A stretch of DNA of 63,631 bases, counting the filler, from Intoshia linei (lineage: Eukaryota > Animalia > Orthonectida): NCBI GenBank assembly GCA_001642005.1. It is 4 parts of 4 records of this genome, joined end to end, with 100 filler letters (N's around TTAATTAATTAA, not from the genome) between each part and the next. Parts side by side here need not be neighbours in the genome. Positions count along the whole stretch, not along the records: positions 29,363 to 58,466 come from LWCA01000393.1; 3 more parts are not named here. The stretch is one strand, 5' to 3'. The position numbers were made by a program, and so were the translations under genes. Positions 22,001 through 51,744 of this stretch are shown in pieces (the stretch's first letter is position 1; each line of letters starts with the position of its first letter). The notes beneath the pieces are model-generated. The model saw only the letters and a list, made by a program, of their open reading frames with translations, searched no databases and was not told where the DNA came from.

Positions 22001-25000
22001 TATATTTTTTTAACTGCATATTGGATGGTTTGGTTTTTAAAATAAAAGCCATATAGATTTTGTAATAATTTAATTAAAATTTTAAAACAACTAATTTTAC
22101 AAAATAGTAAAATAATTCCGTATTTTTTTGAAATTGTAAGAAGAATATTTAAATTTTTATTTTTAAAAAACAGGAGTAAATTTTGTTTTTGTCAATAAAG
22201 ATGCAAATTTCTTAACGTGAAATATATCTTACTCGCTGTACCAGAAATAAACTTGAATTTGTGTTTTTAACTTTCTGAGCCTGACGCGACATGTTAGCTT
22301 AAGATAAAATAAAAAACATTTTTAATTTTTTTCACATATAATAAAATGTTACTTTTTTGATAATAATAAAATAGTTTACTACTAAAAAAAAGTCGGTAAA
22401 TACCCACAGGTTGGGAATCACTGATATAGATGGTACGAGTTGTTATCAAATGACAAAATACATAATACTCGGAAATTCCGAGTCGGAATTATATAGGGTA
22501 AGAAATATATCAAAAAATTACACTTGATATTTGTTAAAAGTTTTCACATTTTCCATAGACAAAAATATAATTATTGCATATCTATAAATCAGAGAAACAA
22601 TTTTCTTTTGAAATTCCAAAATGTCTTCATATTTTAATTCGGCCTAGATTATTAAATAAATTACATCAGTGGCTCTCAAGTTGAGAGTCTCAACCTATTA
22701 GCCCTAGCCAATACTTTTTCTATGTTTAATGCAAATTTAAATTAGATATTCACAAATTTCGAAGTTTATCTGATTGTTTTTAATCCTTTTAAATTAGTGT
22801 ACCTCCTTTTTGGTAATTTAATAACTTAATAATTGCAGTATAACACGGATTTTGGCACCATTTTTGAACAGTGCCCCAAAAACTGAGAATAATGATAAAA
22901 TTCTGTTATCTATTAAATTAATTAAACAATAATAGATCAAATTAAGAAAGTTGATAATCATTCGTTGATGACGTACATCAAAAAAAATAATGCATTTATT
23001 TTAAAAATAAACTTTTATAGTATTGATAAATGTATAAATAAAATTGAACATTTGAGAAAGGCAAGAATATTCAAACAAGACAATAAAATCTTAGTACGGC
23101 CTAAGTCCTTATTAACGAAATTTTTGTTAGCGGAAAAATTTATACGGAATTTTGAATTATTTATTTTTTTTAACAAATTTGTATGTACTTAATATGGAGT
23201 CCTAATTATTCAAAAATTTAAAAAACTAATTATCAAATAATTCTAAAAAAAAGTGTATTGAACGTCTACACATTTCCAATATAGAAATATGGGTGAAAAA
23301 AGCTATATAATTCATTCCTTCGCAATTTTTAAATTCTCATTTTCAAAAAATTGTGAATAAAATTTAAATAAAAACTACAACGAAACACTAAAAGTAATAA
23401 AACTTTTATCATTTTTATATTTATTACAATCCTTTGCAATATTGGTAAAATTCGACTAAAATATGTTTATAAAGTGAAGATTCGGTTAATTATTAATACA
23501 TAATTGGTATTTTTAAGTATTTATGAAATTGGTACTGAATATATATCATCAGTGATGATTCATCACATTGAAAATGACAAAATAGGTTTTTATAATTTTA
23601 TTTTTTCTGAAATTTATGCATTTATGACAATTATTAGGATTGGACTGTTTCTACTATATTTTTAATATTATACACACATTCTGTCTAATAAATTAAAAAA
23701 ATAGGATAACAAGTTTTTAAAATTATTTAGGCAAATGTTAACAAACAAAAAATTAAGACTGAATAATTCACTTTAAAGTAAAAAGTAATGATATATAACT
23801 TCAATAATATATTTGTGAAATTTTTGAAAATCCGATTATTGTAAGCGATTAACCTGGTTTTCGATTTATCGGATATCATTCCCTAGTCCTTAAGCTCGCA
23901 TTGGCGTATTTTATTCAATTTATTCCACTATTTACAGTTTTTATTGTTCAAATATACATAATTTCGATTTACACATAGTTTTCCGCTTATTTAATTATTA
24001 TTTAAAATTATATTTATTAATTATCATTTAAGCCTCAATGCCTAATGAATATCCACATCTAACTTTTTTAACACTTAAAATTTAGTATAGTGACATATAT
24101 TGTCATTTCAGTAGCAAATTTTAAAAAACATCGGATTAAATCAATTATAATGATAGTTGGGAACTAATGGGTTAATGAAAGGAGTCCTAGACATTATATC
24201 TCATACATAATGTATATTAAACCTAGATTTAAAATTTTGAATTAAAGTGAAATATATCATCATCTGGGTGACAAAACTTAATACTAAAATGGGTAGCACT
24301 AGACTAGCTAAGAATCCTGATGTAAAATAAAATTATTACATTAAAAAGTAAATTCAAATATTACTTCAACTTGTATAGAAGATTTGACCAAAACTGCCAA
24401 ATAACAACCAATAGAACACGCTTTTTTATAAAAATCGTAAGCAATGTCAATAATTGAAGAACAAACATAATTCGACCATATGCGAGAAGGATAATTTTTA
24501 CTTACAGCTTGCTTTATTTGATTTGAAGGTTTCACTAAAATAAAATTATTGTTAAATTTACAAATAACCTAGTGTTACGCAAGAAGGTATATATTTTTAT
24601 GGTTAATAATAACAAAAATAAAATTAAAAATAATTGTAAACAAGAGTGGAAAAGAATTAAAGCAGGGCTTCTCAACGGTGGAAAAATCAACTCTTGGAAA
24701 CAATTCTCACCATAGTAAATTTTATCAATCTAAACCTATAAGTGATTTTGATTTTTAATTATGAAAGTGGCGATTCTAAAAAATATGTGTGAATTATGGT
24801 GTTAGGGGGCAAAACAAAAAAAATTGAGAACCCCTGAGTTAAAGTATATCGGGTAATTCCGAAATTTTTTTAATTTGTAACAAATCAAGAATGGGTTAAA
24901 TTTAAAATTACATGTATTTTCCAAAAAACTAACATCAATCGAATCAATAACATTACTGATAACTTTTTTGTAATTATCAACATTAGGAAAACATGAAACA

Positions 25001-26787: not shown

Positions 26788-27237
26788 TATCAAATTTTAT
26801 TTCAACGATAATATAATATATTATTTTTTAGAAATTTTGAATTTAAGTTTTAGTTTGTGAAATAAAATTATTTTCTCTTTGGTGAAATTTTAACATTTTC
26901 AAAGCTGTACTATAGTTTTTGTTGAAGTAGATAAATTTAACAAATAATGAAAACTTTCTGAATGCTTTATGTAATATTTTTTTATATATGCAAATTTTCA
27001 AGTTACTACTCAATGCAATTAAAATATCTGTAAATGACCACTTTATCATTTTTTAGTCGTCGGTGGCAAGATTTTAACGGATTTGTGGTATAGTATAATG
27101 ATGTATTAATAGAAGAATATGACCTATATTTCAGATTTTTTTTTTTAGATAAATTAAATTTCGGTTATAGTTTTATTCATTCATGCCTAATTTTTTTAAA
27201 TAATAATAAATCGGGCCTTTCGTAGTTTAGCACCACC

Positions 27238-27496
27238 CAGAGCAGAACCTACTCAACTCGATCCCACCGAAAATGAAAAATAGACCCTAAACGTTTTTTC
27301 ACAAAATAAGCAGTTTTATATAGCCCCTAACGACCTGTCTAAGGCTTTTTACTTATATTATAAATTCAACACACAAAATAGTTGATATTCAAGAATATAA
27401 TTTTTTTAATAATTAATTTGGAAAAATGATGCCCCATTTCACAAAAATTTCGTCGAGGCCCCAAATAGGAGTATCGATACGGAAAGTTCAGTACTG
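27238..27496. mobile_element. hAT-type MITE related to 57231-57499
   Basis: Imperfect TIRs CAGAGCAGAAC/GTTCAGTACTG and TSD GCACCACC/ACACCACC. Internal similarity to 57231-57499 (CCGAAAATGAAAA, AAAATAGTT.ATATTCAAGAATATA). Confidence 0.65.
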
Positions 27497-29069
27497 ACAC
27501 CACCTTCACATTTTCTTGTAATATTGACTCATCATGAGGCTCTCAAGACAAAAATTCTTTTAGTAAACCTGTAAATAAATATTTTATTTACCATATCAAC
27601 CATAGATAATGGATATACCTCTATTGCAACCTTATCGATTTAATGGTGAATTTTTCACGTTTAAAAACTATTTTTTTGAACATAAAAATAATATCAAATT
27701 CTATTTTTAAGTATGGGACTGTGATAAAATCCAAGAATTATGTATTGAAAATGGACTAATGACAACTTTAGTGAGATTTTAAGAAACTGGGCAATTTATG
27801 AGACTACACAACACGGGTAGCTATGCTGATTGCAAGATTTATGTGTTTTAACCCCTGTCACCAGAGAAGGTTTATAAGGTCAATATTTTTTTCACCGTTA
27901 TTTGAAAATGGGTTGATTGACACATATGCATAGACTAAAATCATGCATTAAAATAGATATGTAACATAGTTTTTAGGACGAAGGACGGTTTGAATGTTCC
28001 ATATATGAATAAAGAGCCGAAAATTATAAATATACCTAAGAGATTTTTTTCGAGGTCCCGCGTTCGCCTCTATAAATAAATTAGATACAGATAGAACAGT
28101 TTTTATTAACATCAGTATCATTGAAGTGACCAGAATTACGTTTTTAAGGCAACACCGAAATTATTAATTTAATTATTTGTTATTTTCGGATTCATATTTG
28201 ATTGAAAAAAATGTTGGGAAAGTGGATTTTTGAGTAACAATGCATTAGACCTTAGAGCAGGCATTACCAATGTGAGGCCTACAAAAAATTTGAAATAATA
28301 GATTGGATTAAAAATACATAAACATTTATTTATTATGTAGTAATTACATGTGCTCCCAAGCTTTAGACAAAAATTTAGCATAATTGAAGTTGATATTTTC
28401 TTTTTCAATTTATAAACGTGTTCGTGGGTTAATATTTACTATGCCTGGTTAAAATGGTGGTTTATATATTTGACTACAACTCACCGAAAAGAATTTTTGG
28501 TATGTGGTGGTAAACTACGAACAGCTTTTTACTTTTTATATAAATTGACTCATCATAACCAAAGGTGTTACCAGAAGTCGGGGATCATTAATTATTAGAG
28601 GGTCAAACGCATATAATCTATTTAAATTGGAATTTTTATATTATGTTTATTAGATATTTATATTTTTTTTCTAGTTTTCATTTGACAAAATTTTTCAATG
28701 TTGAACATTCAACTGTTGAGTTGTTTAACTGCATCAAAATCGACATTTTCAATAAGTGATAAAATGTTATATTAAGTTATATGATGAAATATATACGCTA
28801 TTGTAGACTGGTTAAAATTCTTACAGATGTGTATAAATTAATGAAACCAAAATTTTTTCAAAATGGTCCTATTACATTGTCTGACATTGAAAAATTGATC
28901 TCAGATAAAATTATATATTAATAATCCTTATTTTTTCACGGTTACTATGATATGCTTCGTATTAAATATACCGCTCGCAATCGGGAATAATTCCATTATT
29001 CCTTTTTACATAATATGATTATGTTGCCTATATTTACTAAATATACTTTTATTTATTTATTGTTTATTT

Positions 29070-29262
29070 TTGATAAAAATGAATTGTAATTATTTTAAAA
29101 AAAACACATTTTATCACATATGTGGTGTTTATTTAAAGTTAAAAAATAAAAAATACGAATTTTCTGAAAATTTGATGAACTTATACTATTCAAAATATGA
29201 ATGCATTATGGAATTAAATGATTGGACACCTTGCTTTATGTGTTCAAGCTGTCATGCGTCTT
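29070..29262 (+). mobile_element. Cys-rich N-terminal fragment of a DNA-transposon-associated protein, truncated by an assembly gap
   Basis: C....NTFYHICGVY...YYSKY...DWTPCFMCSSC resembles the C-x-FCYICG...W.PH..C..C N-terminus of widespread invertebrate transposon ORFs. The superfamily was not determined. Confidence 0.45.
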
Positions 29263-29362
29263 NNNNNNNNNNNNNNNNNNNNNNNNNNNNNNNNNNNNNN
29301 NNNNNNTTAATTAATTAANNNNNNNNNNNNNNNNNNNNNNNNNNNNNNNNNNNNNNNNNNNN
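29263..29362. other. Assembly gap spacer (N44-TTAATTAATTAA-N44)
   Basis: An identical 100-nt construct occurs at 58467-58566 and 62239-62338. The linker places stops in all six frames. Confidence 0.97.
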
Positions 29363-29710
29363 AATAGTTGAAATGATTTCTTTAATCGACCGAAGAACCT
29401 TTCAACGCAGCCACGCATTTGTCCCAACTGTTTTTGTTCATCTTTTTCAATGTTATTTACCAAAGATGTAGGACGTTTATTTCCATTTTGCGTATCCCCG
29501 ATGTGTCGCTTTCTGGTCCCAAATACCTAGCGTCCATCAACAACGCCCATCTATTGTCATTATCATCGGGCATTCTTTCAACATCTGTTTTTTTTAAATA
29601 ATCCAGGTATGTCAACACCCCAAATATCTTTTTCTTTAGTGCGTTTATATGGTTTTTACCGTCCCATAGACGTTTGGAATGTATTTCTATTCCACTTGGA
29701 CGATAGACCT
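29363..29710 (-). mobile_element. PIF/Harbinger (DDE_Tnp_4-type) transposase fragment
   Basis: Manual translation: VYRPSG...KRLWDGKNHINALKK, WALLMDARYLGP (D.GY.G motif) and, after a frameshift, RGCVERFFGRLKKSF. Confidence 0.8.
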
Positions 29711-29789
29711 ATATCTAATTAAATAAATATTAGGTCAATGAAAACCATCAATTAAGTCGAACAACTTGATGATAGAAAATGAGTTAAAA

Positions 29790-30170
29790 AAATAGTTTTT
29801 ACATATATTTAGATTTAAAAAATTGATTCTATCATGAATTTTTTCAATTTAGGGAAATATTTGTAATCTTTATTTTCTATATCACGATAGAATATTGATA
29901 GTTTACAGTCAAATGCCTTAATAATACTAAACATTACATTAAGTTTTCCTGTACCCTTGAAATTTACGATTAAGTTCATTTAAATGTAAGGAAAGGTAAG
30001 TAAAAAACATAAGACTGACAATCCAATCCTTATTATATAATTCAGAGTTATCTTTATATCTTAAAAATGTTTTAATTTCTGCAGCATTTTAAGCTTTTTA
30101 AGCATTCCACAAAACGCTTAAGAACTTTACCTCTACTGAGCCTTTGATATTGCTGTATATAATCAGTCTA
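29790..30170 (-). mobile_element. hAT (Buster/SPIN-like) transposase fragment
   Basis: Translation gives LSRGKVLKRFVECL and DWIVSLMFFTYLSLHLNELNRKFQG. Confidence 0.8.
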
Positions 30171-30174
30171 TTAC

Positions 30175-31199
30175 AACTGGATTCTACTTCCTTTAACATT
30201 AAAGTGATAACTACCGTCTACGGTACATTTAACAGCCTTTTTCAAAGCTAGTTCGTAATTATTATTGTGTTTATCGTCGATTTCAGATTTGAATATTTTC
30301 TTTAATCTTGACCCGTCCAACTTCTTTAACCATAGATATATACTTGTCTTTGATGGCATGATTGGTTTGAATTGGAATTCCATTGACGTTTGCCGATGTT
30401 CTGTATTTGCGTATTTTTCAAAAAATGCTTTGACGTATGAGTTCGTGAATATACGTGCAGGCCACTCATTTTACAATCTTGGTACGTTAAAGTTTCGTTT
30501 TTCTACCGCTTCCAGTAACATCTTTGTTGTACCCATCCTATTAGAGTATGCACCCGTACGCAAGATTGAATTAACGAAGGTCTCAACTGGTATTTTGCTG
30601 TGGATCAGTGAGTCAGGATTATATTTCAAGTTATATGCCGTTAATAATTCTACGTCGTTTGAAACTGTCATGTAATCGTTAAATTCATACGAGACGGTCG
30701 AGTCAATCATCACATAATTGTCATATACGCTTTGCAGTAAGCCGAGTCCACTCTGTATCCTCTGGTGTTTGTCTCGAATTCCCTGCGTGTGTAATTGTGA
30801 CCTTAAATAATCGAGTCTCTGGTGTAGTCTATTTCAAAAAACGCTATCTTGACGTCTGTTAGATTGATTTTTTTGGGATTAACAAGTTCGTATTTCGGTG
30901 CTGAAGTAATCAGCTGACCTTCTTCAGGACAATAAAGTGCTTGAGGTTATTTGTCGTCGTTTAATCTGTACCCCACCTCTTTGTTGGTCATATCGATATT
31001 AGTTTCGTCAAAAATGTGCAAACATACAGTTGTATCGCTTTCTTTGATAGTACAGACGGTTACATGAGTTGCATTATTTTTATATTTGAAATGAACATCG
31101 TTCGGGCAAAAATTGTCTGAAATTTTATTGTGTTCGTTAGTATTAAAATTCTGCCTTTGTTTAAAAATTTGCATGGCTTGTGTTAATATCTTTTTGTTA
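30175..31199 (-). pseudogene. Endogenous viral element: virga-like (Martellivirales, alpha-like) RdRp N-terminal fragment
   Basis: LQSVYDNYVMIDSTVSYEFNDYMTVSNDVEL, LRTGAYSNRMGTTKMLLEAVEKRNFNVPRL*, VKAFFEKY, SKTSIYLWLKK and TVDGSYHFNVK are collinear with tobamovirus-type RdRp (MQFYYDKCLPGNST..., LRTA..PR..GLLENLVAMIKRNFNAPEL, VDKFFDSY, VDQYRHMIK). The ORFs at 30471 and 30171 are in the same frame across one stop. 30740-31199 is less certain. Confidence 0.82.
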
Positions 31200-31201
31200 T
31201 A

Positions 31202-32830
31202 CAGTGAAACCTCTTTATAAACAAACGCTTTTGAAATTTGAATTTGTCTATTGAATAGTTTGTTTTATGGAGTATCAAAAAAGCATGATAAGAGTAATAA
31301 AAATTAGATTATTGATGTGTAAAAATGAAATAAACAAATTATTTTAGATTGATATATTTTTAGATGTATTGTTTAAGATACAAAATTTGATTTTTAATTT
31401 TAATTAAAGTTAAAGCTATTCAATTAAATACATCTCTAAACCTTCTATATATTCTTTAACATGACTGGGTAAATTTAATTTTAAAAATAATGAAGTTTTA
31501 AATTGATCCAAATGATTTAACGATACAAATTTATCAAATACTGGGACAGTTTTAGCATCATTATTACTTCCATTAAACTTTCAATGGTATTGTTGACAAT
31601 TTCATCAACTGTTAATGTATGTCGTGTAACAATGTTATAATCCATATTTATATATTCTTCAAAACTAACATCTATCTTAATGAAATGAAATGAGAAAATT
31701 TATTCCATTGTTGTTCATTGGGTATACAACACTTTGTAGTTCAAGAAGTGTTCTGTCCACCTCTTTGAACATGCCAGCTTTAGAAAAACAATTCTTAATT
31801 GTATTAAGGTGTAACTTTCATCCATGCTCTATTTATTAGGTTTACTACAATTAATAAATTAACATCTTGAACATCATTACAATTCAATCGTAAGAAATTT
31901 TGATGACAAGTTCGTAATGATCATTTAAGTTTTCAATAATACCCATATCCATTGGTTCAACAATTTTATCTAATAAACTGTCACATAGTGGCGAAGGAAA
32001 TATACAAAAGCAAACATTAGTAAATGCGATTAAATTAACGGTAGATGAGATGGATGAGTGAAATCCAAATAGAAGTTAAAGAAGAGGAAAAAACATTTAT
32101 TTAAAAGATACAAATTAATTTAATTGTTAAAATCAGCCATAGTATATTTTCTTTACAAAGGTTCTTCAAAAGCAATAGTGTCAATAAAACATGCGGAATC
32201 AGTATCAAGAGATATAAAGCCACTTACAAATGAAAAATCCGTTTGAACACTGGCATCAACAAATTTCTTTTGCTTGTTTTACTATTATTACCGCTGTTAA
32301 ATGATCCCCATCGCAGTTAGAAAGTTAACTTCTTCAGACGCCATACTACTATCCTCATATAGATTGGTTACTTGCTTACACATTCGCTGTGCCATACTTA
32401 CAGTACGACACGTATCGCGAGTCGATATCACTGGTCGTGTCTCGAAGGTACCAAATAGAGTAGATTGGGTTTTATGTGATCTGTAATTATCTATGATAAC
32501 GTATTTTTCCTGCACTTTTTGCCTTAAAATTGGCCTAGAAACGTATATTTTGACTTCTGGCTAGATTAAAAAAGGTTAGTACCAATTGCTCAACTTTATC
32601 CTGTTTTACAGGTCTAATTATAGTAGACTTTAAAGTTATAGGAGTTAAAGAATTAGCCCTAGAAATTATTGCTTCCTTATTTTTTACAATGTATGATATA
32701 CCACTGGGGACTACACCAAATTCTTCAGCATTTTGATATTTTTTTATACCCTAAGAAATTTTTTTAAGTATAGCCATTTTTTTGAAATCCAGACATGCAT
32801 ATTTTTTTTGAGACACAACACTAAAATAAA
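31202..32830 (-). mobile_element. Tigger/pogo (CENP-B-like) transposon remnant with its central part replaced by foreign sequence
   Basis: TA|CAGTGAAACCTCTTTATAA terminus at 31202. CENP-B HTH (AEEFGVVPSGISYIVKNKEAI), Tc5-HTH (ARSQNI..SRPILRQK), DDE_1 (EPMDMGIIENL) and AWMKVT..TIKNCFSKAG are present. Confidence 0.85.
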
Positions 32831-32888
32831 TCATATATAATATTCATTCTATGAAACAATACATTTTAAATGAAAAAATTACGTAATA

Positions 32889-32910
32889 CAGTGGAATCAG
32901 CTTATAAGAG
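32889..32910. mobile_element. Isolated Tigger/pogo-like terminal repeat abutting the viral fragments
   Basis: TA|CAGTGGAATCAGCTTATAAGAG, in the same orientation and style as the terminus at 31202. Confidence 0.5.
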
Positions 32911-32934
32911 TTGTTGATTTGATTGTCTCTTTTT

Positions 32935-33212
32935 TAACCACTGGCTCTATTGGCCATCCCTTCGCCTAAAGCAATCTAGGGATTCATCACGAGGTGAATT
33001 TTGGCTAATGACCGCACAGGGTCTTGTATCGAGTCGAGCGATGTGAGAGAGTCATAAAAATATCTACCACAATAAGGTACCGGCTGTCTCTTAGGGATAT
33101 CGAATAATTTAATCGTCAGACCTAAGCATTCCGAAGTCTGCTTTGCCTAAGATAAAAAATCATCCACTCTCACATCAACTCCACAATAAAGTCCAAGCTT
33201 ATTCTGGGCATT
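32935..33212 (-). pseudogene. Endogenous viral element: nodavirus-like RdRp (protein A) fragment spanning motif C to post-motif E
   Basis: AQNKLGLYCG-VDVRVDDFLS*AKQTSECLGLTIKLFDIPKRQPVPYCGRYFYDSLTSLDSIQDPVRSLAKIHLVMNP*IALGEGMANRASG parallels Flock House virus protein A as I recall it (CGDDG...AAKCFGLELK...FLSRVFVDP...TIQDPLRTLRKLHL...IPLADAACDRVEG). Confidence 0.78.
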
Positions 33213-34975
33213 TGTTTAAGAATATCTATGACATTAGAACATCATTTCTAATGACAATGAATTAAAGAATGACATTCCCAGGTTAACTCCTAAAGCTACT
33301 GACAAAATTTGATGATTAAAATCGTATAAAGATCTTTGAATTAGATAGAACTGTTTCGGAACCCTAATCGGATTTTTGGATGCGTCTACAAATCAATATT
33401 GAGATCGGTACATTTTAGGAAAAGATGGATAAATGTTGTTGCATGTTAATTTGATATCTTCTATGGGTCTGATGCACTTATGACATTTTATGTGACTATG
33501 CAATAAATACTCGATATTTTGATTAGTGTTAATCAATTCTATAATTATGCTTTGACAGAACAACATAGAAGCTTGGTACATAAAGTCGAAATTATCTGTT
33601 TCATATTCAGGGAATTTTAAATTATCGCAGGATACGGATATGAGAAGTATAAGAATGTGCAGTAATTATGCGACATAGAACAGAATCCACCGTTACTGTA
33701 TCTGTTCGAATAAAATCTATGGAGTGCGGATCCGGTCCGGAGTGGCGGGTTTTTGTTTAAAGTGGTTATATTTATATTCGTTAATGATTGTATGTTGTTA
33801 ATGAGTGTAGTATGAAGGTTGGTATTAGGATCGATGAACTAGTTTATGCTCTATAACAGTTTAAGACTTTTACTTAGTAAATCATAATCTGATGTTCTCT
33901 CCCATTTTTAGCATATAGGATTGATCAATATCTAACTGTGAGCATTCTTGCAGTGGTGTAAGTAATTAAAACATTTCATATGGATGGGGAACGGTTATAC
34001 CTAATAAAGGTTTTCCCCAGGATTGAGTTCTTAATTGATCTGCGTAAGATGATGAACATTCCCACATGTTGAGAATTTTTCCTTTATCAAATTCAATACT
34101 TTTTATTATAATAGCTTTCTGTCTTTAACAATCTTAGATAAACTGTTGCTGAAAACTTTCTTGAAAAAGCTTATCTAATAGTTTTAGCATTCTGTATCGT
34201 GCTATTATTAAATGGCATCTGTATAGCAATAGAGTGTTGATCCGAAGAAGCTAGAAAGGCTTTATGCTATAAAGATAATTTAAGAACGAATCAACCGATC
34301 TATGTGTCATTTCTATACTGTCTTTAATCAAAATATTTTTAATCGTTGCAGTCCTATTTATAATTTATTTTTACAGACTCTTTAATAATACTAGATACTG
34401 AAGCGGGATTTATTAAATTTAAGGATCCAGGATTTTCTATCAATTTGGCTATATAGGCTGGTTCGAATTCACGAATATTAAAACGTAGAGATTCAAATAC
34501 TAATTTGTTGAAGTAAGGGTTATTTGAATTAATCATAGATTCCTTTCCAGAATGATAAGGATTCTGTAAGTCCGTCAGGAAATTGCCTTATCAAGAATCT
34601 TGTAAGTGTCATACCACCTATCCCTCCGATTCCGGGATCGACAAATACAATTCTCATCCAGAGCTTGTTTTCTTTCATTGATTTTGGATAAGCATTCCAG
34701 TTCTTTAAATGAATTAAGCTTGGTCCCATAAGTGATGGGTTATAAAACATTATCTGTCTTAAGGATGAGCTTACACAAAGCAAATACAAATCGATAGATT
34801 TACTGTAGGAAGATGAATGTTGAGCAATTGTCAAAGCAGTTGCTCCTATAGAGCATAACATAAAGCATAAAGTCAATTAATAATTGAATCCAATCTTGTG
34901 GATCGCAAGTTTATTTTACGTCATCGTAAATTAAGGGTTTCAACTTTGTATTGAATTCCATTGAATATTATATTA
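33213..34975 (-). pseudogene. Endogenous viral element: rhabdovirus-like L protein fragment (RdRp C-terminal part, PRNTase/capping domain, start of connector)
   Basis: Collinear motifs: IIFNGIQYKVET, SIGATALTIAQH, DPGIGGIGGMTLTRFLIRQFPDGLTESLSFWK, KLIENPGSLNL, QNAKTIR, MWECSSSYADQLRTQSWGKPLLGITVPHPYEM, WERTS, RTGSALHRFYSNRYSNGGF (HR motif at 33716-33721), NFDFMYQASMLFCQ and HIKCHKCIRPIEDIKL. Stops, frameshifts and deletions are present. Confidence 0.93.
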
Positions 34976-34998
34976 TGTAGATTAACTTTAAAATCTAG

Positions 34999-35460
34999 GT
35001 TACAGAGAAAGATCGACCGGAAACAACTGAAACAACTGGATCCGAATCAAGTGGTAGTGACTCTGTATGTTTTTGCTAAAAATTTTTTAATCCTTTATTA
35101 TTATTACATAAATGACTCGAATTATTTATTTACTTAGAACGACGACGCTTTAATTGAAGTTCGTAACCCTAATCACACAAAATCGTCATTAGACCAATGT
35201 AAGGACATTGGATTGACTCGTAAAGATCGGTAATATACATGGTTGTTGTTTACAGTGTGAATAATAGAATTAAGCAAGAAAAACGAGAAAATTACATGAA
35301 AAAACACTTAGAAGGAAAAACTCCTGAAGCGCAATCAGATATGGCTCGTCTTGAAAAAATTCGCAGTGAACGTGAAATGGCAGCTAATAAACGAAAGATT
35401 TATGAAGGTACAAAATTTATTTTTCTGTTTATAAATATTTTAGATTCAAAAAAGAAATAA
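34999..35460 (+). CDS. PDAP1: 28 kDa heat- and acid-stable phosphoprotein (PDGFA-associated protein 1); 5' exon not located
   Basis: Exons 34999-35064, 35138-35229, ~35268-35408 and 35443-35460 splice in frame: ...GSESSGSDS NDDALIEVRNPN...LTRKDR...YMKKHLEGKTPEAQSDMARLEKIRSEREMAANKRK. Confidence 0.82.
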
Positions 35461-35478
35461 TTGTAAAATTTAATAAAA

Positions 35479-36483
35479 TTACAGCATTTTGGATAATTCC
35501 GGTATAACTTTAAACAAATCCAGGTTAAGTCCAATATCTGCAATTTGAAAAATTGGTGCATCAGGATCAGTGTTTATGGCCACAATGCATTTACTATCCT
35601 TCATACCGGCTAAATGCTGAATTGCGCCAGAGATTCCTACTGCAATGTATAAATCGGGGGCCACAATTTTTCCAGTCTGACCAATTTGTAAATCATTTGA
35701 CACGTAACCTGCATCAACGGCAGCTCTAGAGGCTCCTACCGCTGCTTTTAATTTATCTGCCAATTCATAAAGTATTTTAAAGTTTTTACCACTCTTTAAT
35801 CCTCGTCCACCCGATATAACTATGCTTGCATTGGATAGTTCTGGTCGATCGGATTTTGTCAAGGTTTTTGATATAAATTCTGACCTCGAATCGTGACATT
35901 TTGTGTCCAATTTAAGGTTGATTGTTTCCATTTCGGCGCAATCTTTTGAACCAATTTTAACTGGATCAAATTTTGTTGAGCGTATACTTATTATGTTGAA
36001 ATCACTGGTTGATTTAACATTTTCTATTGCATTACCAGCGTATATTGGTCTATGGTAAATATTTTTTTCTATTTTTAATACGTCCGTAATGGGTGAAACG
36101 TTGAGTTTGCCTGCTAATCTAGGGATAAAACCTTTTGAAAAACTTGAAGAGGATGCAATAATGTTGTTGTATTTCCCTTTTTTTACTAAATCTACGATTG
36201 CATTGGTAAACACTTCTGCTCTGAATCCATTCAATTCTTTATCATCAATAATATTTAGTTTTTCAATTTCTTTTATTTTTTTCAGTTGATTTGTCACTAA
36301 ATCACATTTAAATCCACCTAAAAAGCATTCTACTCTTCCTAAGGATTTTGCTGCACTAATGGTGTTCAGTGTACATGGCGCTATATTAATATTGTCATGT
36401 TCCGCAATTAGTAGACTAGAGATTGAACGGAGTTTACATACATGTTTAAGTTTCGGTTTCAACTTTAAACAGAGATTTAACAT
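35479..36483 (-). CDS. ETFA: Electron transfer flavoprotein subunit alpha, mitochondrial
   Basis: Intact 334-aa ORF with a basic presequence, RPIYAGNA, DRPELSNASIVISGGRGLKSG, AAVGASRAAVDAG and QIGQTGKIVAPDLYIAVGISGAIQHLAGMKDSK. Confidence 0.97.
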   Translation of the reverse strand: MLNLCLKLKPKLKHVCKLRSISSLLIAEHDNINIAPCTLNTISAAKSLGRVECFLGGFKCDLVTNQLKKIKEIEKLNIIDDKELNGFRAEVFTNAIVDLVKKGKYNNIIASSSSFSKGFIPRLAGKLNVSPITDVLKIEKNIYHRPIYAGNAIENVKSTSDFNIISIRSTKFDPVKIGSKDCAEMETINLKLDTKCHDSRSEFISKTLTKSDRPELSNASIVISGGRGLKSGKNFKILYELADKLKAAVGASRAAVDAGYVSNDLQIGQTGKIVAPDLYIAVGISGAIQHLAGMKDSKCIVAINTDPDAPIFQIADIGLNLDLFKVIPELSKML

Positions 36484-37626
36484 TAATTTTTATTTGTAAA
36501 TAGATTTTTACCATAACATTTGTTGCCATTTCAATTTTAGTTGAAACTGGAATATTATCAATTTTTCTTTATAGTTTTTATTGATATAGTAATGATTAGG
36601 TAATTAATTTTTCCATGTTATCTAGTACAAATTTTTTTAATAACAAATGAGCCAGTTGACTATCATACTACAGTATACGATCTGAAAGTTTAAATTAAGT
36701 TCTGACTGCATTGGTCAATTTTGTAATAATGAATAAAGTATTACCTACACAAATAAAAATACAAATTGTATGTAATATTTTTAATTGAAATGTACAATTT
36801 TACAATCAATTTTTTTCATCTGGTGTCATGTACAATGAAACTCTTGAGATTGCTAAAATATTAAGATTATTTAAAAAAATGCCAATTTTTTATTTTTGAC
36901 AAAATCTCACTATATCCATCCTCGTTAATATTAAAATTTTTTATATTTTTCGATGAATTTAGACAAAATTACGATACCATTACACAATGTAATTTTTTTA
37001 AATTAATTAAAAATTAAATTTTTTATATGTAAATTATGACAGCTAATTCAAAACTTTATCTACCCAACCCTTCCCGTGAGTATAGGAATATTCTCTCTTT
37101 ATACTTGTAAAAATATATATAACGTGTATTATAATATTTCTTTTAATACCGCGTGATTTATTCAAATTTTTAGGATCAAGTATACTATTTTGTCTGACTG
37201 GCTGACTCTAAAATTGAAATAAATATACAAATTTGACATGAAATAATCAACTAAATTACCGTTTTGTTATCGGTAAATTGAATCGGAAATTCATCATTAA
37301 TATTTACACGGGAGCACAAGTTTCTATAATAATTTTAAGTGTTTATTTTATATATGGTAGGACTTACACTGTCGCATAATATTAATTTATTTAAATCTAA
37401 ATTACCCCGCATTGACTAATTTTTTTTTATCTAAATTCATGTAAATTATTATTACATATGCAAAATTATGTTACCTTTATTACTGTCATTGCTCGTTAGA
37501 CTTGTTTTTTTCCTAACTTTAAAATTATCCGTATTTTTCAATATTCCATTTAAAACCAATTCTATAATATTATATTATATTCTAAAATATTCAATTGGTT
37601 GTCATTTGACTTACAAAAAATAAATA

Positions 37627-38350
37627 TCCTTATTTGTATAATATGCTATGTAATAATTGTGTGTTACCATTTATTTCAATAACTACCTTTCTTAGAATTT
37701 TATAAAGTCCACATTTTAATTACAGTTTTTTCCGAGGGTGTTAGCAAAATAAATTTCAACCTCCCAAACTCACATCGTACGGGTCAAAAAGCCCAATTGT
37801 TATTTTTTTGAAGATCAAACGAGTTGGAGAATTTAAAATAGAATATATACTCTGATACAGATTTTAAAATCATAAACATTATCATAAATTTAAATTAAAA
37901 AAAATATATATCTTCAGGGCCAAAACCACAAATTACTCTTTTTTTAATAAAACGAATATGATAATTTAATAACGAAGTGAATAAGTGACACCTTCACTGT
38001 CAAAAAAGCATTTTAGTATTTATTTTTTTTAATTCGAAACTATTTTATTAACAAAAAATTTGAAACTATACACACAGTCTAATCAATTAAAAAAATCGGT
38101 TTTAAAATTCTTTACGCAAATGTTAACAACAAAATTAAGATGGAATAATTCACTTTAAAGTAAAAAGTAATGTGATATGGAGATTCCATCTGAAACAAGT
38201 TTGGAAACCACTCCTTTAAAGAAATGATAATAGTGAATAGTAGGATTTTTAAGTTAGATTTTCAACGTGAATTTATTTTTTGGTAGAATTAAAATGTTTC
38301 CTCGGCAGAGCTAGGTGCTGTTTGTACGTAGTACATAGCAGTTAACCTAG
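37627..38350 (+). mobile_element. Non-autonomous Helitron-like element
   Basis: 5' A|TC start, subterminal hairpin CTGTTTGTAC-GTA-GTACATAGCAG and a CTAG 3' end. No TIR or TSD. Multicopy in this window. Confidence 0.6.
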
Positions 38351-39019
38351 AGAAATATAAAATTGTATGTTACCGTTTAATTCAAAAATTTAGCGTATTA
38401 CTAAATAAAAAACTCAATGTCTAATATAATTTATCGAAGGTGAAGTTTAATCAAACTTCATTCTCAGAAATTGAGACCTTGGTGTCAAAAATTTAAATTA
38501 TCTTTTTTTGACTGAGAGTCTTAAAATTTAATAAACATAAATTCTGAGACAGTCTATATATAATTTTTAATCTGCAAAATTATATGCTTTACAATGAAAA
38601 GTTTACATGTAAATTGTACAATACATTTAATAGTTACAATGAAATTTTTTTCGTAGAAACTTAAATTTCGTCACGAGGATGAGGGCCTGGTATATACGTT
38701 ATATGGGATGTTCAGATAAAATGTGTATACTATACAATCAAGTTTAGTTAAATTTACATTTTTATAGGGGAATATTCAAAATAAAATGTATAAGAAAAAA
38801 TTTTTAAAGGTTATCTTACTAATATTTTTAGGATTAAAGCGATTTTTTTTGAAAAGTGAGTGGTCCATGGTGGAACAAGTTTACGAACCCTTCCCATAAG
38901 ACTTATGGCGTAAGTGATACTATATTTGCAAAAAAATATATTTGGTTTATAATTTGGTCCAAATAAAAAAAAATTGACTGCACTCGTTTTACTTCCTTCA
39001 TACATTAGGTCTAATTATT

Positions 39020-42000
39020 AGCTAAATATTTTCGATATAAACTTACGATTGCAATCCAATTGTGAATTTTTATAAATTGAAGTGACAATGTTCTTGTAAT
39101 AATCGTCTTTAGATATTTGTGGTAGGACTCTTCGACTGATATCTTTGAAATTTATTAAATTGATAATGTTTAAAGTCTGTGGGTTCCGTCAAATGTGAAT
39201 ATTTCATTTTTTTTAATAATACTTTTTTGTCTCACATTTATCCTTACTTATATTATTTATTTAAAGTTATTTTTTTTTAAAAATATGTCTCTGCGTCTAC
39301 CATTTTATTTAGAAAATAGAATCTAATATAATTTTCAACAACAAAATACTAATCCGTTTTAGGGGAATTTCCAACCCTTTTTTATATGTATTATTATATA
39401 TATTACATGACCCCTTTTTTATAAAAAATGAAATGAATCTTTGAATTTTAAAAAAACACATATTCTGATACTGTTTTTAAAATGATGAGCATTATAATAA
39501 ATTTCAATCTCAAAAACATTTTCTATGATAAGAATTAAAATGGAATGCTAGATGAAAATTTTTGAAGGCCGTATTATGTTTACCCTGATCTACAAGCTTT
39601 TACAATGTAATCATTGCAAAGAATAAACAAAAACTAAAATTACCAATAACTTTTGAATGCTTATCATTTTGTTTTGAATTTTTTTCAATTGTTAGAGTGA
39701 TACAACTATTTGACTGTAGATATTTTTCATTTTCTACATTTTTTATACAAATTACATTATTTTGTAATTCAATTTCAGTATTTTTCATTTTTTTTATATT
39801 TAAAATAATAGAACCAATTATAATATTAATAGTTTTATGTTTATATATTTTGATTTTTTACAAACATGAAAAACGCTGATTTTTAATAATTAATAATTAT
39901 GAAAGTTACTGTTCATTGGGGTAAAATTATTTTGTTCATCATTTTGTGACTCGTTATTGAATAATAAAGGCTTAACGGTAGGTGTATCATTTGGCTAATT
40001 AAGTTTTATAAATATAAATAATACAATCATGTATTTAAATGTAATTACCTGTCTTACTAATAGTTTTTTAGGCTTGATTTGGTTAATGTTAAAATTTAAT
40101 ATTAAATGACAATTCTTATTGACTTCCGGTTTATTATGTTGATTAGAGTATATAGTTGGTCTATTTATTACCTCAGTTTCAAATCCATTTTTATCTAATT
40201 ATCAATTAAATATAATAAATGTTATAATTTCTGGTTTGGATAAGTTACTGAAGATTTATAAACATTGTACTACAGATAATCTAAACTCGATAAAATTTGA
40301 TTTTTTTAGATTTATTTACTTGGATTTGGTTTAAATTTTCGAGGTGTACAAGGTTCAAGTTGAGAATATTGTAATACATTTGAATCTAAAATAAGATATC
40401 AAATTAAAAAAACTACTGTGTTTATCAAATTACATATATATGTTAATACATGTATTTATGATAATAAAAAATCAAACATTGCATATTAATTACAATAATT
40501 ATAATCAATAATAACAACGTCGTATTAATTAAGGTTCAATAAAACATGAATGAATCATCAAGTAAATATAAATTATTAAATACTAGTTTGATTATTGTTA
40601 TAAGAATATCGGTATTTCACTGAAACGGATGTACTACGTACATCAGTAGGTATGAGTTCTTCTTTATTTATAATTTTATTATATTCAACGTTTTCATTCA
40701 TTTTATTTTTCTTTTTATTCTATATATAAAATTCAAATAATTATATTACGTTTGAAATGTAAAATTTTTATTTATATTTTAGTTTAATTTTGGGTTTTAG
40801 AAATTTTTTTGAACCAAACTTTTAAAAGAGGGGTTTTTAAGATTTTTTTTGAACCTAAAACTAAGGTGAAGTTTTTAAGATATTTTTAACCAAATTGTAA
40901 AGTTGTCTTTTAGTTTGGTAATATGTGTTTGTATATATATAAATAAAATGTAGTATATTGCAGGTGTTGTCACTGATTATATAATCATTACTCCTAATAC
41001 TATAAAAATTATATTCATGTGTGTGTTACCGTTTATTTAAAAAAATATCAGTCCTAGAATTAAAAAAACCAATGTCTAATATACTTTTTCAACAGTGATA
41101 CTGTATAGCAAATATCATTTTCGGAAATTGAGTCCTTTTGTGTAAATGAACGAATTTTCTCTATTTTTTTGGATAAAATAAGTCCTAAAATTTAAAAAAT
41201 CATAGAGTCTGGAACGCCCTTTAACGCCATTAACATTGTAAATATCAACCAAAGAAACGTAAATCTTCATGTTCAAACCATGCATTAATTCCTTTTTTTA
41301 AATGAAAAAAGTACTAAAATTAAAAACAAAATGACGTCTCATACAAATATATCCAATAAAAAAGTATAAAAAATTGACGTCTGCACGGTCAAGGATTTAG
41401 GATATAATCCTTTATAACGTAAACCAAAAACATAAAATTTTAAATGTACCAATATATATTTTTTTCGTTCATTGTTTTTGGTCAATTTTTTCTATAAAAT
41501 AAAAATAATCAATTTATCAATAAAATTACATCACGTTCCAAATCTTGATTCATGTAAGATTTTTTTAAATTTTTATAAAATGCATTTCTTATTTTGATAG
41601 ATTTTAATTTTTTAGGTTTTTTTGTTTTAATCTAAATTTTAACATAGAAATTGCAATTATCAAATTATATAAGTAAGGTTATTATTATAATATGCTTTAT
41701 ATGTCTGTGTGTGTTATCGTTTATTTTAATAACTAGCAGTCTTGGAATTTTATAAAGTCCACATTTCAATTACAGATTTTCGGGTGTTAGCAAAATAAAT
41801 TTCAACCTCCCAAACTCATATCTTATAGGTCAAAAAGCCCAATTGTCCTTTTTTTTGAAAATCAAACGAATTCGAGAATGAAAAAAATATATACTCTGAT
41901 ACGGATTTTAAAATCATAAACATTATCATAAATTTAAATTTAAAAAAAATATATCTTCAGGGCCAAAATCGCAAATAACCCTTTTTTTAATGAAAACAGC

Positions 42001-45000
42001 CCTAGAATTTAAACAAATTTACAGGTGTTACAGTTGTATCCTGTTAACACACAAAAAATTTCACACATTCTATTTAATAAATCAAAAAAATGGTATAACA
42101 TATGTTTTTAAAATTCTTTACGCAAATTTTAAAAAAAACAATTAAGACGGAATAATTCACTTTAAAGTAAAAAGTAATGTGATATGATGGCTCCATCTAA
42201 AACAAGTTTGGGAACCAAGTATTAATTATAGTGAATAGTAAGATTTTTAAGTTAGATTTTAAACATGACTTTATTTTTTTGGTATAATAAAAATATGCCC
42301 TCCACAGAGCTAGGTGCTGTTTGTACGTAGTACATAACAGCCACCTAGTTGTAATATAATATTTTTGAATATCATACATCTTTAATCAACTCTTTCAAAT
42401 GATTTGGTAAACTTTCGGATTGAACAGAACTGTCTGAGCCAATATCCCTATAATTTATAAATAGCACTTTTAAATATCATAAACAATTACGTTGTTTCAT
42501 AGTCATTGGTATAATTTATTAAATTTATATCTTCTGGGCAAGTTATATTAGAATTTTCATTTTTTATTTTGTTGAAAATGTCCATTTTTAATTTGAGTAT
42601 TAAATCATTAAGTGTATTAATGTACTAATGTATGAAATTATACATTACAATTTATATTATTTTAAAAGCATAAGTTACTTTGGCTGGATTAGGATCACAA
42701 TAATCTAAAATAGCGTCGCCAAAATCTTTACCAATGCGCATATAATCGAATTGACTGAAATGAGTATTCTTTTTATCTCCTATAGTTGACCCACAAAATG
42801 AAGCCTATGATATATGCATATATTCATCATTACATTTGTGATCGTCTTTTCATTACCTCTAATGTATAACTATTCAAAATGCCCATGCGCCAAAAAGTAA
42901 TTCTGCCTGTTCCCTCTTTACTTTTTTGTAATTTATATCTACAACTATCATAATTCCCCTAAAATGCGATATTTACTTATAGAATATAATTCAATTTGTA
43001 CCATGTTCGGTGAAGATGAAACTAAAATCATTGGAAAAATTCTTTGACTTAGTCTCCTTTTTGGATCTTCACCTGTTGAGCAGCCGTACAAAAAATAATT
43101 TTGCTTTCTACTGTGCCCGTGTATATCACAATATAACATTACTGTTCTTTCCCGTATCAATCTATTTTATAAATAATTTATACTTGTAAAGATTCTAATA
43201 ATAATCAAATTAATAAATAAATTTTTCAAATGATGACTGATATTTATAAGATTGTTTATGGTTTAGCATAGGGGTTTATACCGGTAAAGTACAAAATTAG
43301 TTTTGGGGATGGAATCAGATAATTTTAAAAATATGTATAATCAATGAACAATGTAAAGTTAAGTGTAGTTCTACATGATAATAATGAACAAATTATACTT
43401 TTTAGTCATTATTCTGGAATGCCAAATGGGTGCATAAATGTCCTTTAAAATTGTTCGATATTGCCGATTTAAATCTCGCCCGGACAGAGAACATCTATAG
43501 TTTCCAACAATAACGCCATCTAAAACATTAAATGAAATATTATATTCATTAATAAGTTGTTTAGTGATTAAATTACCTGGATTTAACATAGGAATAATTT
43601 TAAATACAAACAAGCCTCGTAGTATCTACGAAAAAAAATCATAATATCAATAATAGTTATAATTCAAATAATTGAACATATTTTAATTTGTAAATATAAG
43701 TACTTTGAGACAAATATTAAAATTCATACCTTGGCTTCTTCAGTATTGCTTAATATGAAATCCAAAAATCCTTCTATTATCCAACTAGAATTTGTTTCAC
43801 CGGGATGGACTCTTGCGCTAAGAACTATCGCTTTACGCTATTTTATAAAAATATAATTATTTGTAAAGATAAAAACTTTAAATTTGTGAATTTAAATTAG
43901 TTAAGAGTCTTCACTGAAGTCTAGTCAATTTCACTGTAAAGCAGCTGTTCTCAAATGGGGGTACTGGTACCCTCTAGGGGTACTAGTTCGTCTCATTCTA
44001 TGAATCACACTTTATAATTCATAAATTATAAAAATTTTTAAAATTTTATAATACTTTAATCTCTAACTACATAAATCTTTTTAATCTTTTTTATATTTAA
44101 CGATTTATGGAATAAATAAACATTTTTAAAATTTTATTAAAATTTTGCAATATCTCTCAAATGTTTCAATTTTTATATATGGACAATGAATGCATTTCTA
44201 CAAATTTTCTGAAATCCTACCTCCTCTTACGCATAAATAATCAATTTTTAATTTTTTAACATTATTCACTATTCTCTCTTCTATCCTCTCTACGTTTTTC
44301 TATTTTTTTCAAAAAAGTTTACCTCCGCCGTGCAAATTAGAATTAATTATTAGTATATGTAATAGATATTATCTGAAACTACATCGCCAGTAATTTACAA
44401 AATTAATACATACACTGTATGCATTATAGTCTTAAACTATTGTTAATTCATAATTGTTTTGTTGAATATTGAATATTGTTTGAAATTTTAATTATTACCT
44501 TACTTGAGTCAATCGAATAGCTATCACGATCACTAGAAGTTATTGTTAAAACGTGTACAAGATTTCCTGCCAATGTTTGACATAGTACCCGTTGTTGACA
44601 TATTTTATAAATTTCTTTATTGTTAAAAACTTTTTTCAGATATTTCTAAAATTTTAATAATACAAATATGAAAAATATCAAATAATGTAATCTAACCTGT
44701 AATCTAGTATAGGTGTAAGGATAACAATGAGCAAAATATACGACATCATCCTTGTAATCAACGGAAAAAGTGAATGTAAGTGAGTAATAGTTTACATTTT
44801 CGTTTGATCTGGTATATCTAAATATATCTAAATATGTGTACATTGTACAATGTACGTCGTACATTACTTACTCAATCCTTAGAAAATGTTAATTTAATTT
44901 TTATTTCAAAAGTTGATTCAAGGTAGTGTGTTAAATTTACCAAAAATTTAAAAACCGGGTTTTTCAAACTTACGGTAAACCGGTTTTATCGTAATGTATA

Positions 45001-49027: not shown

Positions 49028-49854
49028 CTATATGAATATTATCCTTTCAAATATTGTAATTAGTTTATTATGTATGAAGCAATAAAAATATATGAAATAT
49101 AAAAATATAAATCATTCTTTGTTTAAACTTAATTAATTTATTGAATTTTCTGTTTTACTCAATTATTTTTCTACAAATTATTGTCTGAATAAATAAATTT
49201 TAAATTGACACAAATAAGTCAAAATTTAAAAAGTTTTATTCAATCATGCAAAGTTGTTATGTTTTATTTAATACATTTGTTATTAACGTTAATTAACAAT
49301 ATAAGATATGTATAGTATGCATTTCCATTATATGAATTATAATATTAATTTACATTATAACAATTGAAATTATTTAAATTTCTAACTCATTGGTTATTCA
49401 TTTATTCCTTCTGTTTATGTATTAATTGTTTTAATCGTATTGTTTCGTATTTAATTTATTTAAAAGAAAATGAATCTATACTATAGATTCTTTATTCATA
49501 TTTTGACTTTCTATTTTGTCAAAAGTTTAAATTTTAATGTTTCTGTGATATATTAGATGTGTTCGATTCCAACAGATTTGTATATGATAATTTTATAAGT
49601 GTTGTATATATATTAAAAATATATTTAAAAGGGCATATTTGTTCCAATAAATATGAAATACCGATTCTCAAACTCAGTAGAATCATCTAAATATGGTATG
49701 TAAAGTTTTAATTTAAGTTTCGTTTAAGTTAAAGATATCGGTTAAAATATTTTTACTCTTAATTTCAAGAGAAAAAAATTTGAAAAACTCTTGTATTACC
49801 GAAAAAGGTCTACCGCTACACCTATGATTATGGGGTAGTACAAGGAATTCTTAT

Positions 49855-50525
49855 TACATATATTGGCGCCATATTAACTTTTTTTTTAATACATGTAATG
49901 TTTTATAATTACCGTAATAATATCAAAATTAATTAGAATTTATTATCAAATTTATTGGGGACATTTTAACCTTTTTGTTGATACAGGTAATGTTTTATAA
50001 ATTGCCGTAACTACTATAATTATTTATAATAATTTCGTATTAAATTTATTGGCGACTTTTAAGTTTTTTTGACACAGGTAATGTTTATAGTTTCCATATC
50101 TACAACAAATACTAATTAAAAATTTTTATTAAATTTATTGGCGTTATATTAACTTTTTATTTATCAATTTATCAATTTTCGACGTTCGTTTAATGAAATA
50201 TTCGTTAAACAAAACATTCGTTAAATTAAAGTGGCCAGAAAAAATACGTACTATCAATTTTAGTTGATTTGGTGATAAATGTAAAGCCAAAACTACTTAT
50301 CTATGATGACGAATAAAAATTTTTGGCTTAAAATTTATTCCAAACAAACTAAAAGTGATAGTACGTATTTTTCTGGCCACTTTATTTAAATGAAATTTTG
50401 ACTGTATAATGTTTATAATTTCCACAACTACAACAAATACTAATTAAAAATTCTTATTACATTTATTGGCGCCGTATTAAATTTTTATTGATAAAAGTAA
50501 TGTTTTATAAAATGTCGTAACTACT
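49855..50525 (+). repeat. Tandem ~90-95-bp repeat array interrupted by a palindromic Tigger-type insert
   Basis: The TATTGGCG...GGTAATGTTTTATAA unit occurs at ~49860, 49952, 50046, 50136 and 50463. An inverted repeat AAAGTGGCCAGAAAAAATACGTACTATCA/TGATAGTACGTATTTTTCTGGCCACTTT spans 50228-50383. Confidence 0.7.
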
Positions 50526-50526
50526 A

Positions 50527-51560
50527 CTGTCAAAATCTCATTTAACGAATATTTCATTTAACGAACGCGTAAATTCAATATTATTTTATTTTTTTAGTAG
50601 TTTTTAGGAGTGTTTATAAATATTGTTTTGGTTTTATGCTTTAAATATCAGGCGAAAAAATAGCTTTTTTAGTAATTGATAAATTTAAATCGCCTCATGG
50701 TTTCAAGAACAATGACATGGAAGCTTTAGGGTTGAAATATACTTACAGTCGAAAATCTTGGATGACGTCTTATATTCCGAAATTAGTTACACAAGATTAA
50801 TGAAAAAATGATTAAAGGAAATTGAAAAATACTGCTTGTGCTAGATAATGCATCCGTGCATTACGTAGATAACAATTATAGTAACATAGAGCTTCATTAT
50901 TTTCCACCAAATTGTACATCAAAAATCCAACCTATAGAACAAGGATTTATTCATTCTTTTAAATCTAATTATAGAAAAAAAATTTTAAGAAATCTGAGTA
51001 TGATGAATGGAAGTGATGAAATATTTTTGATGGATCAAATAAAGAAATTCAAATTGTTAAATGCTCTTTCATTTATAATTGAATCATGGAAGACTATCAG
51101 TTGATTCAATAATCAATTGTTTTAGTTGTGCATATACAAACTGGGAATGTAAAAATATTTGTATGAAATTGTGAAAATGCGAATATATCGATGAAAAATG
51201 TAATTGTAGATAAAAATTTGACTGAAGTCAATGATGATACAGCATTCTATGATATTCTACCTATATGTGATGAAAATTATTGTCAAGATAACATATTTTT
51301 GGAAAATATTTTCATCAACAACGATTCTGATAACATAGAAGAATTGGAAAATGAAACAAATAAAACTGAATTAATTGGTTTTTCGGATACTCTTTACCAT
51401 CTTGAAAAATTAGAACTCTTTTTCCTTCAATCAAATGGTAAAGATGTTGAACAAGTCAGTGCCTTAAGGCAAAATCTATTTGAAATAAACAAGAAGTCAG
51501 TTAAAATAACTGATTATGTCATGAAAAATATTAAAAATTAAAATGTAAATCAATGAATTA
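50527..51560 (+). mobile_element. Tigger/pogo transposase remnant (DDE_1)
   Basis: KSWMTS, LLVLDNASVH, ELHYFPPNCTSKIQPIEQGFIHSFKSNYRKK, IIESWKTI and a C-terminal KITDY. A TIR-like CTGTCAAAATCTCATTTAACGAA sits at 50527. Confidence 0.85.
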
Positions 51561-51744
51561 ACATTATTTGATTTTACCAATAGTTCATATATTATTTAGC
51601 AGAAGAATTATATGCGTCATTATAATTATAATGTTAATAATATTCCAGTGATTCTAAGACTTTTTGAGTAACATTCCATGAAAATAAGGTTTTTAATTCT
51701 CTCAAAAGTTATATCATTTTATTTTTTTGTATTTATATTTGGAT

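Follow-up and report, generated by a model that had tools for sequence, protein, structure and literature searches.

We identified a block of decayed virus and transposon fragments in the genome of the orthonectid Intoshia linei, a very small marine parasite, and this locus is very likely a multi-virus fossil bed within an intron of the gene PDAP1. The block lies in a 63,631-nt stretch of DNA (the window; 26% GC, three 100-nt placeholder gaps), where it begins at base 1 of the 29,104-nt contig LWCA01000393.1 (29363-58466). Judged by sequence similarity, it holds non-retroviral endogenous viral elements (EVEs) from three unrelated RNA virus groups, together with transposon remnants. All six recognizable pieces (three of them transposon calls below curated cut-offs) are on the minus strand and PDAP1 is on the plus strand, so every piece is antisense to the gene. 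The block is a fossil archive of the RNA viruses of orthonectids. It poses the question of whether one-way multi-virus EVE arrays serve as immune memory in animals other than arthropods or arise as a side effect of introns being safe harbours. We give an about even chance to the block being a passive intronic insertion sink that retains inserts antisense to PDAP1.

Sequencing evidence consists of assembled short-read contigs from six runs, X1-X6. X1 is a DNA run, possibly of the sample behind the assembly. X2-X6 carry no RNA label and were taken as RNA from their GT..AG joints; their contigs hold no strand information. X2 and X3 belong to a different study from X1. Reads were compared only with the contig to the right of the gap.

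Viral fragments

The features of the block and the adjoining PDAP1 exons are as follows.

29363-34998, plus strand: visible part of the long PDAP1 intron, very likely at least 5636 nt; truncated on the left where the contig ends; AG acceptor at 34997-34998
29363-29620, minus strand: Harbinger/PIF-like transposase remnant, truncated by the contig end (DDE_Tnp_4, E 0.0019, below cut-off)
29950-30170, minus strand: hAT-like transposase remnant (alignment to a second hAT-like copy in the window near 2.2-2.5 kb)
30174-30833, minus strand: alpha-supergroup (virga/toga-like) RNA-dependent RNA polymerase (RdRp) fragment, N-terminal part of the domain (RdRP_2, E 1.6e-15, profile 20-151)
30834-31199, minus strand: stretch of 33% GC beside the alpha-like piece (no significant match in Pfam, PDB, P0122 or P0123)
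31200-32010, minus strand: Tigger/pogo-like element, 3' part (TA-CAGTG terminal-repeat-like end at 31200; weak alignment to a DDE_1 copy)
32011-32510 (boundaries by eye), no strand assigned: insert of about 500 nt replacing the middle of Tigger (33% GC; no significant Pfam or PDB match)
32511-32887, minus strand: Tigger/pogo-like element, 5' part, with a CENP-B-type helix-turn-helix (CENP-B_N, E 0.0017 at 32667-32780, below cut-off)
32883-32915, no strand assigned: putative second pogo-like terminal-repeat stub, truncated by the noda-like piece (25 nt, 76% identical to 31196-31220, same direction)
32937-33194, minus strand: nodavirus-like RdRp fragment from the C-terminal palm region, containing stops (PDB 8fm9_A 687-774, RNA-directed RNA polymerase, E 2.8e-5)
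33408-34882, perhaps to about 33240, minus strand: rhabdovirus-like L fragment, end of the RdRp domain and capping domain (Pfam PF00946, PF14318; rabies and vesicular stomatitis virus (VSV) L)
34999-35064, 35138-35228, 35267-35405 and 35442-stop (35460), plus strand: downstream exons of PDAP1, PP28 family (GT..AG joints in X2-X6; PP28, E 1.1e-13)

Twelve frames of the block were scanned against Pfam; matches occur on the minus strand only, with none in the six plus-strand frames. An initial annotation of the window had placed six pieces at about these positions, all on the minus strand, and had called the viral ones endogenous. Both statements agree with our results, as the viral pieces match RNA-virus polymerases in Pfam and PDB and are joined to host DNA in X1.

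The alpha-like frame contains one stop in its 220 codons. It has two matches among 1.84 billion representatives, Shenzhen toga-like virus (27%) and the I. linei protein P0123 (35%); outside the I. linei genome, no known relative in this set exceeds 27%, and IMG/VR contains no relative. The original label was virga-like, but the RdRP_2 profile spans the whole alpha supergroup and the best viral match is toga-like. We therefore prefer the term alpha-supergroup, with any virgavirus grouping judged from matches rather than from a tree. P0123 (A3Q56_05990) is encoded on a different, 14,141-nt contig of I. linei; it is an open 307-aa frame with 33% identity over 82 aa to the alpha-like fragment and carries no viral annotation. 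By this similarity, we identify it as a second, different alpha-like viral relic of the genome. The neighbouring stretch 30834-31199 is possibly the upstream linker of the same alpha-like virus, to judge by its position. A likeness of this stretch to P0123, noted by eye, failed a shuffle test (296/1000) and was rejected.

The noda-like piece matches 8fm9, which we take to be flock house virus protein A, and also IMG/VR locus L001, at 39% over 80 aa; searched against the window, L001 gives E 3.9e-9. The L piece matches Mononeg_mRNAcap (E 9.4e-21) and Mononeg_RNA_pol (E 1.8e-10) and runs colinear with rabies L 819-1341 over 34882-33408 (residues 819-929, E 1.2e-14; residues 1087-1341, E 4.4e-19), with many stops and frame changes. 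Among solved structures, its significant matches are rabies and VSV L only, which favours a rhabdo-like origin as judged from matches rather than from a tree. No relative was found among proteins of 159-2000 aa, a range that full-length L exceeds, or in IMG/VR.

Outside the block, stop-free frames of at least 45 aa gave no viral Pfam match (187 of 279 frames scanned, 92 compositionally biased frames left out), although this screen misses pieces decayed like the noda fragment. This is consistent with the earlier statement that no further viral sequence was recognized in the 63 kb.

The block is genomic DNA

The block is genuine genomic DNA of I. linei. A single 4146-nt X1 contig covers 32692-36837 with 0 differences, at a depth like that of its flanks, and joins the 5' part of Tigger, the noda-like and rhabdo-like pieces, PDAP1 and the neighbouring gene for ETF alpha. 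Two further X1 contigs, 31321-32721 and 30128-31350, extend it leftwards by chained overlaps; none of the listed contigs bridges 29558-30128. The noda-like and rhabdo-like parts are also found in X2 and X3, again with 0 differences, which supports inheritance of these two parts.

It is highly improbable that the block is chimeric through misassembly or that sequence from a virus or the host worm contaminated it. It does begin at a contig end next to a gap of unknown size, none of the listed contigs bridges 29558-30128, all contigs are short-read and the assembly may have been built from X1 itself. However, one DNA contig at flank-like depth links two virus pieces with two host genes, a run of the second study has the identical sequence, and the stops and frame changes exclude a live virus.

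The X1 contig over the alpha-like part (30128-31350) has 4 differences from the window and a depth of 21.8 versus 13-16 in its neighbours; a second allele or copy of this segment is possible. In X2, unspliced contigs with 0 differences and a depth of 5-10 cover most of 32136-34949. Since they resemble unspliced contigs over other non-exon DNA (39114-39673, depth 7.1; 49545-50226, depth 8.5), the block is not singled out. Lack of coverage was not taken as evidence: X2-X4 are almost nil over the alpha-like part, X4 is nil over most of the block, and X5 and X6 are almost nil over 33000-34333.

A probable long intron of PDAP1

The block very likely lies within an intron of PDAP1 that measures 5.6 kb or more. 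Spliced joints in X2-X6 connect the visible exons of the gene (35064-35138, 35228-35267 and 35405-35442). Leftwards, the contigs continue past 34998 with the same loose end of 82-205 nt in X2, X3, X4 and X6, that is, in at least 4 of 5 runs from two studies. The break coincides with an AG acceptor, the loose end reads in frame into the next PDAP1 exon, and a single X2 contig holds it together with all four visible exons. The last 30 nt of this loose end are absent from the whole window when up to 3 mismatches are allowed; with words as short as 9 nt, no exact match exceeds 11 nt. Searching proteins with the PP28 exon yielded the NCBI model A3Q56_03496 and nothing else. As a control, the loose end of a neighbouring gene mapped 30/30 at 39047, across a 1.5-kb intron. 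The contig is unbroken over 29363-34998 and does not contain this upstream exon. It is therefore simplest to place the exon in the gap or outside the scaffold, which gives the intron a length of 5636 nt or more. The 20 neighbouring introns measure 36-746 nt (median about 60 nt). The rhabdo-like piece stops about 100-115 nt before the PDAP1 acceptor.

In the model A3Q56_03496 (P0121), annotated as a hypothetical protein, the N-terminal 48 residues are read from the antisense strand of the rhabdovirus-like L piece (33668-33751 and 34539-34607, plus strand). None of the listed joints supports these first exons, although rare splicing into the viral pieces may occur beyond those listed. Since spliced contigs give PDAP1 a different 5' end, this annotation is likely wrong, and we flag it as such.

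Transposon remnants

The places and strand originally given for the Harbinger, hAT and Tigger pieces are correct. Their support is weaker than that of the viral pieces, with Pfam matches below cut-offs. The Harbinger/PIF-like remnant belongs to a multicopy family, with diverged copies among the contigs of all four runs compared. The hAT piece has no Pfam match; none of 300 shuffles equalled its alignment to the second copy (score 67, the highest among 36 frame pairs, with no correction for that choice), and 4 of 1000 equalled its motif. It presumably belongs to the Buster/Charlie subfamily. The 3' part of Tigger likewise lacks a Pfam match and aligns only marginally with the DDE_1 copy located at 50.8-51.2 kb (6/1000 shuffles, best of 6 frames); a first Tigger pair test was non-significant. 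We read the stub at 32883-32915 as a probable terminal repeat. The split Tigger and this truncated second repeat indicate nesting of inserts.

No LTR-element domain (LTR, long terminal repeat) was recognized in the 12 scanned frames. Other transposon regions of the window do not match the block (self-tblastn, E 1e-3; blastn, E 1e-4), and Rfam gives 0 matches over 27000-37000. Around the block, we found no target-site duplication, enclosing repeat or matching terminal pair.

Elsewhere in the window, transposase-type Pfam matches are SWIM (plus, 350-496), DDE_1 (plus, 50645-51101) and hAT dimerisation (minus, 57944-58165), showing that transposons lie on both strands outside the block. The DDE_1 match is part of a second Tigger-like transposase (50645-51538, plus strand; E 1.6e-17), which is flanked by minus-strand exons of carboxypeptidase-like and apyrase genes. 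A cysteine-rich frame at 29081-29262 (plus strand) is truncated by the gap and would be a sense insert if it lay within the PDAP1 intron. It may resemble the start of a Chapaev-type transposase; six frames over 27400-29262 gave no meaningful Pfam match. A very high-copy AT-rich interspersed repeat family occurs at 37660-38360, 41700-42340, 51740-52500 and 23250-23800. DNA transposons make up 8.0% of the 41.6-Mb genome, LTR elements 1.3% and long interspersed nuclear elements (LINEs) 0.02%; repeats of every kind total 41.8% (PMC7943196, supplementary files 1 and 3).

Neighbouring genes

35479-36483, minus strand: ETF alpha gene, intronless coding frame, right-hand neighbour convergent with PDAP1 (ETF_alpha, E 3.1e-36; shares the X1 contig with the viral pieces)

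The stop codons of PDAP1 and ETF alpha converge about 20 nt apart (35460-35479), so an overlap of the two genes at their 3' ends is unavoidable. A transcript reading through from ETF alpha would have the viral pieces in sense orientation. A many-exon gene (35442-44645, minus strand) ends very close to the start of ETF alpha; single contigs of X3 and X4 cross both, and X5 and X6 keep ETF alpha separate. This arrangement may reflect tight packing or an operon-like transcript.

Origin of the one-way array

In the passive sink that we favour, viral RNAs would be reverse-transcribed by a host retroelement and the complementary DNA (cDNA) captured at DNA breaks; none of these viruses is known to pass through a DNA stage. 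New inserts would fall into earlier junk and do no harm there, making the growing intron a safe target. The spliceosome would excise the block, and correctly spliced PDAP1 contigs are indeed seen. Sense inserts would be purged more often than antisense ones, and each PDAP1 pre-mRNA would include a stretch complementary to three viruses, which is degraded together with the intron. The intron setting thus offers an ordinary reason for the one-way orientation: in mammals, intronic elements are antisense-biased through selection, most strongly near exons for LINEs and LTR elements (PMC3088655), and the bias holds in 7 of 8 families (PMC3517506). In line with a sink, all pieces are decayed, the genome is repeat-rich (PMC7943196) and viral sequence occurs elsewhere in it (P0123; a viral RdRp gene, PMC6396948).

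Several points weigh against this interpretation. The documented mammalian bias is about 2:1 at most, and DNA transposons were excluded in PMC3088655. In a crude motif count, the transcribed strand was not depleted of poly(A) or splice words (12 AATAAA on plus versus 10 on minus; 20 versus 10 donor-like words), and without such an asymmetry the sequence gives no reason why the opposite orientation should be worse. As no viral match was found in the 187 frames elsewhere, three unrelated RNA viruses within 4.7 kb need a hot spot or retention, which we assume here. The upstream PDAP1 exon was sought in the window and not found, and loose ends of spliced-type runs at 35448, 36270, 40091, 50384 and 51520 also map nowhere in the window, which means that causes other than a long intron exist as well. 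These five possibly stem from paralogues, repeats or other organisms.

The number of insertions affects how the orientation is read. If all insertions were independent, six of six pieces would fall on a given strand with a chance of 1/64; the adjacent noda-like and rhabdo-like pieces may be one event. With four independent events, it is 1/16. It is quite unlikely that the array reflects few events rather than six, with some pieces arriving together, either as chimeric cDNA made by template switching on viral mRNA or as cargo of a DNA transposon, with co-orientation being mechanical and partly due to chance. The noda-like and rhabdo-like pieces do lie at most about 210 nt apart with no recognized transposon between them, and the alpha-like piece directly abuts the hAT remnant. 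Yet decay is unequal (one stop in 220 codons in the alpha-like piece versus many stops and frame changes in L), which suggests different ages, and the block lacks a target-site duplication or matching terminal pair around it.

A different role for the same intron is less likely but a real possibility: retained or routed to Piwi/Zucchini, it might act as a uni-strand source of PIWI-interacting RNAs (piRNAs), and antisense inserts would then be kept by selection because they silence invaders. Such a role would fit six antisense pieces from three virus groups at a single site, in a gene with abundant spliced contigs, and the unspliced X2 contigs over most of 32136-34949. Those contigs, however, look like the ones over other non-exon stretches, the block has no recognized LTR remnant, and introns are normally degraded in the nucleus. 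The possible plus-strand transposase start beside the gap, its family presumed, would also run counter to a one-way memory. Co-oriented transposon-EVE arrays in Aedes are piRNA sources driven by host-gene read-through (PMC7161354; 10.1101/2022.08.22.504762), but mosquito clusters lie downstream of genes, the main one spanning 143 kb. I. linei has 3 PAZ-PIWI (Argonaute-family) proteins, some of which may be of the Piwi clade, and 1 Dicer, with 0 eukaryotic RdRP (PMC7943196, supplementary file 15); Tudor genes are reduced in Orthonectida (PMC12147562). In the literature searched, no direct statement on Piwi in orthonectids was found.

More specifically, we regard it as rather unlikely that this highly simplified, parasitic spiralian employs the intron of an essential and well-expressed housekeeping gene as a compact antiviral and anti-transposon memory cassette, in which the host promoter gives the precursor, splicing protects the gene and the fragments yield putative antisense guides. 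Antiviral memory at this locus is put forward as a hypothesis. If true, immune memory built on EVEs, as in arthropods, would also exist in orthonectids, in an intronic form that lacks an LTR scaffold; the promoter, strand and splice site of the precursor are specified for the locus. The surmise that the array sits in a non-arthropod compact genome was apt, the host being an orthonectid. We found no description of the cluster or of I. linei endogenous viruses in the literature searched, which excluded subscription papers such as the genome paper.

Comparison with known systems

The initial annotation proposed a uni-strand piRNA-cluster-like locus with one plus-strand transcript antisense to every element. 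The co-oriented antisense array is confirmed, and such a transcript very likely exists as PDAP1 pre-mRNA; it is implied by splicing, and no listed contig spans the whole block. The array is part of an intron, though, rather than a free-standing flamenco-type locus or an LTR-rich intergenic or read-through cluster of tens to more than 100 kb. It resembles a uni-strand piRNA cluster in orientation, but the small RNAs that define such a cluster are hypothetical here, and position and LTR content differ from the typical case; we do not class it as one.

A close parallel is the flamenco-like cluster 38 of Aedes aegypti (PMC7161354), where non-retroviral viral and transposon pieces likewise lie on one strand, antisense to one long transcript. 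Read-through core piRNA clusters of Aedes (10.1101/2022.08.22.504762) share the feature that a host gene supplies transcription. Whereas the Aedes clusters are intergenic or downstream of a gene, the I. linei array is inside an intron, and its visible 5.6 kb (cut by the contig end) compare with 143 kb in Aedes. It also differs in containing DNA transposons only, with no LTR remnant recognized, in its spiralian host, and in that its small RNAs are hypothetical.

Antisense-biased intronic elements of mammals (PMC3088655, PMC3517506) resemble the array as decayed inserts that lie against the gene and near an exon. The mammalian bias, however, is known mainly for LTR elements and LINEs, whereas half of the I. 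linei pieces derive from coding regions of RNA viruses and show no evident terminator, and six of six are antisense. Finally, a viral RdRp gene in I. linei has been published previously, and the viral-type RdRp genes described there (PMC6396948) show, as does the block, that sequence from RNA viruses has made its way into the I. linei genome, with P0123 as one more example. As described in that source, the screen needed a near-complete domain in a predicted protein, whereas the pieces of the block are decayed, clustered and derived from three virus groups.

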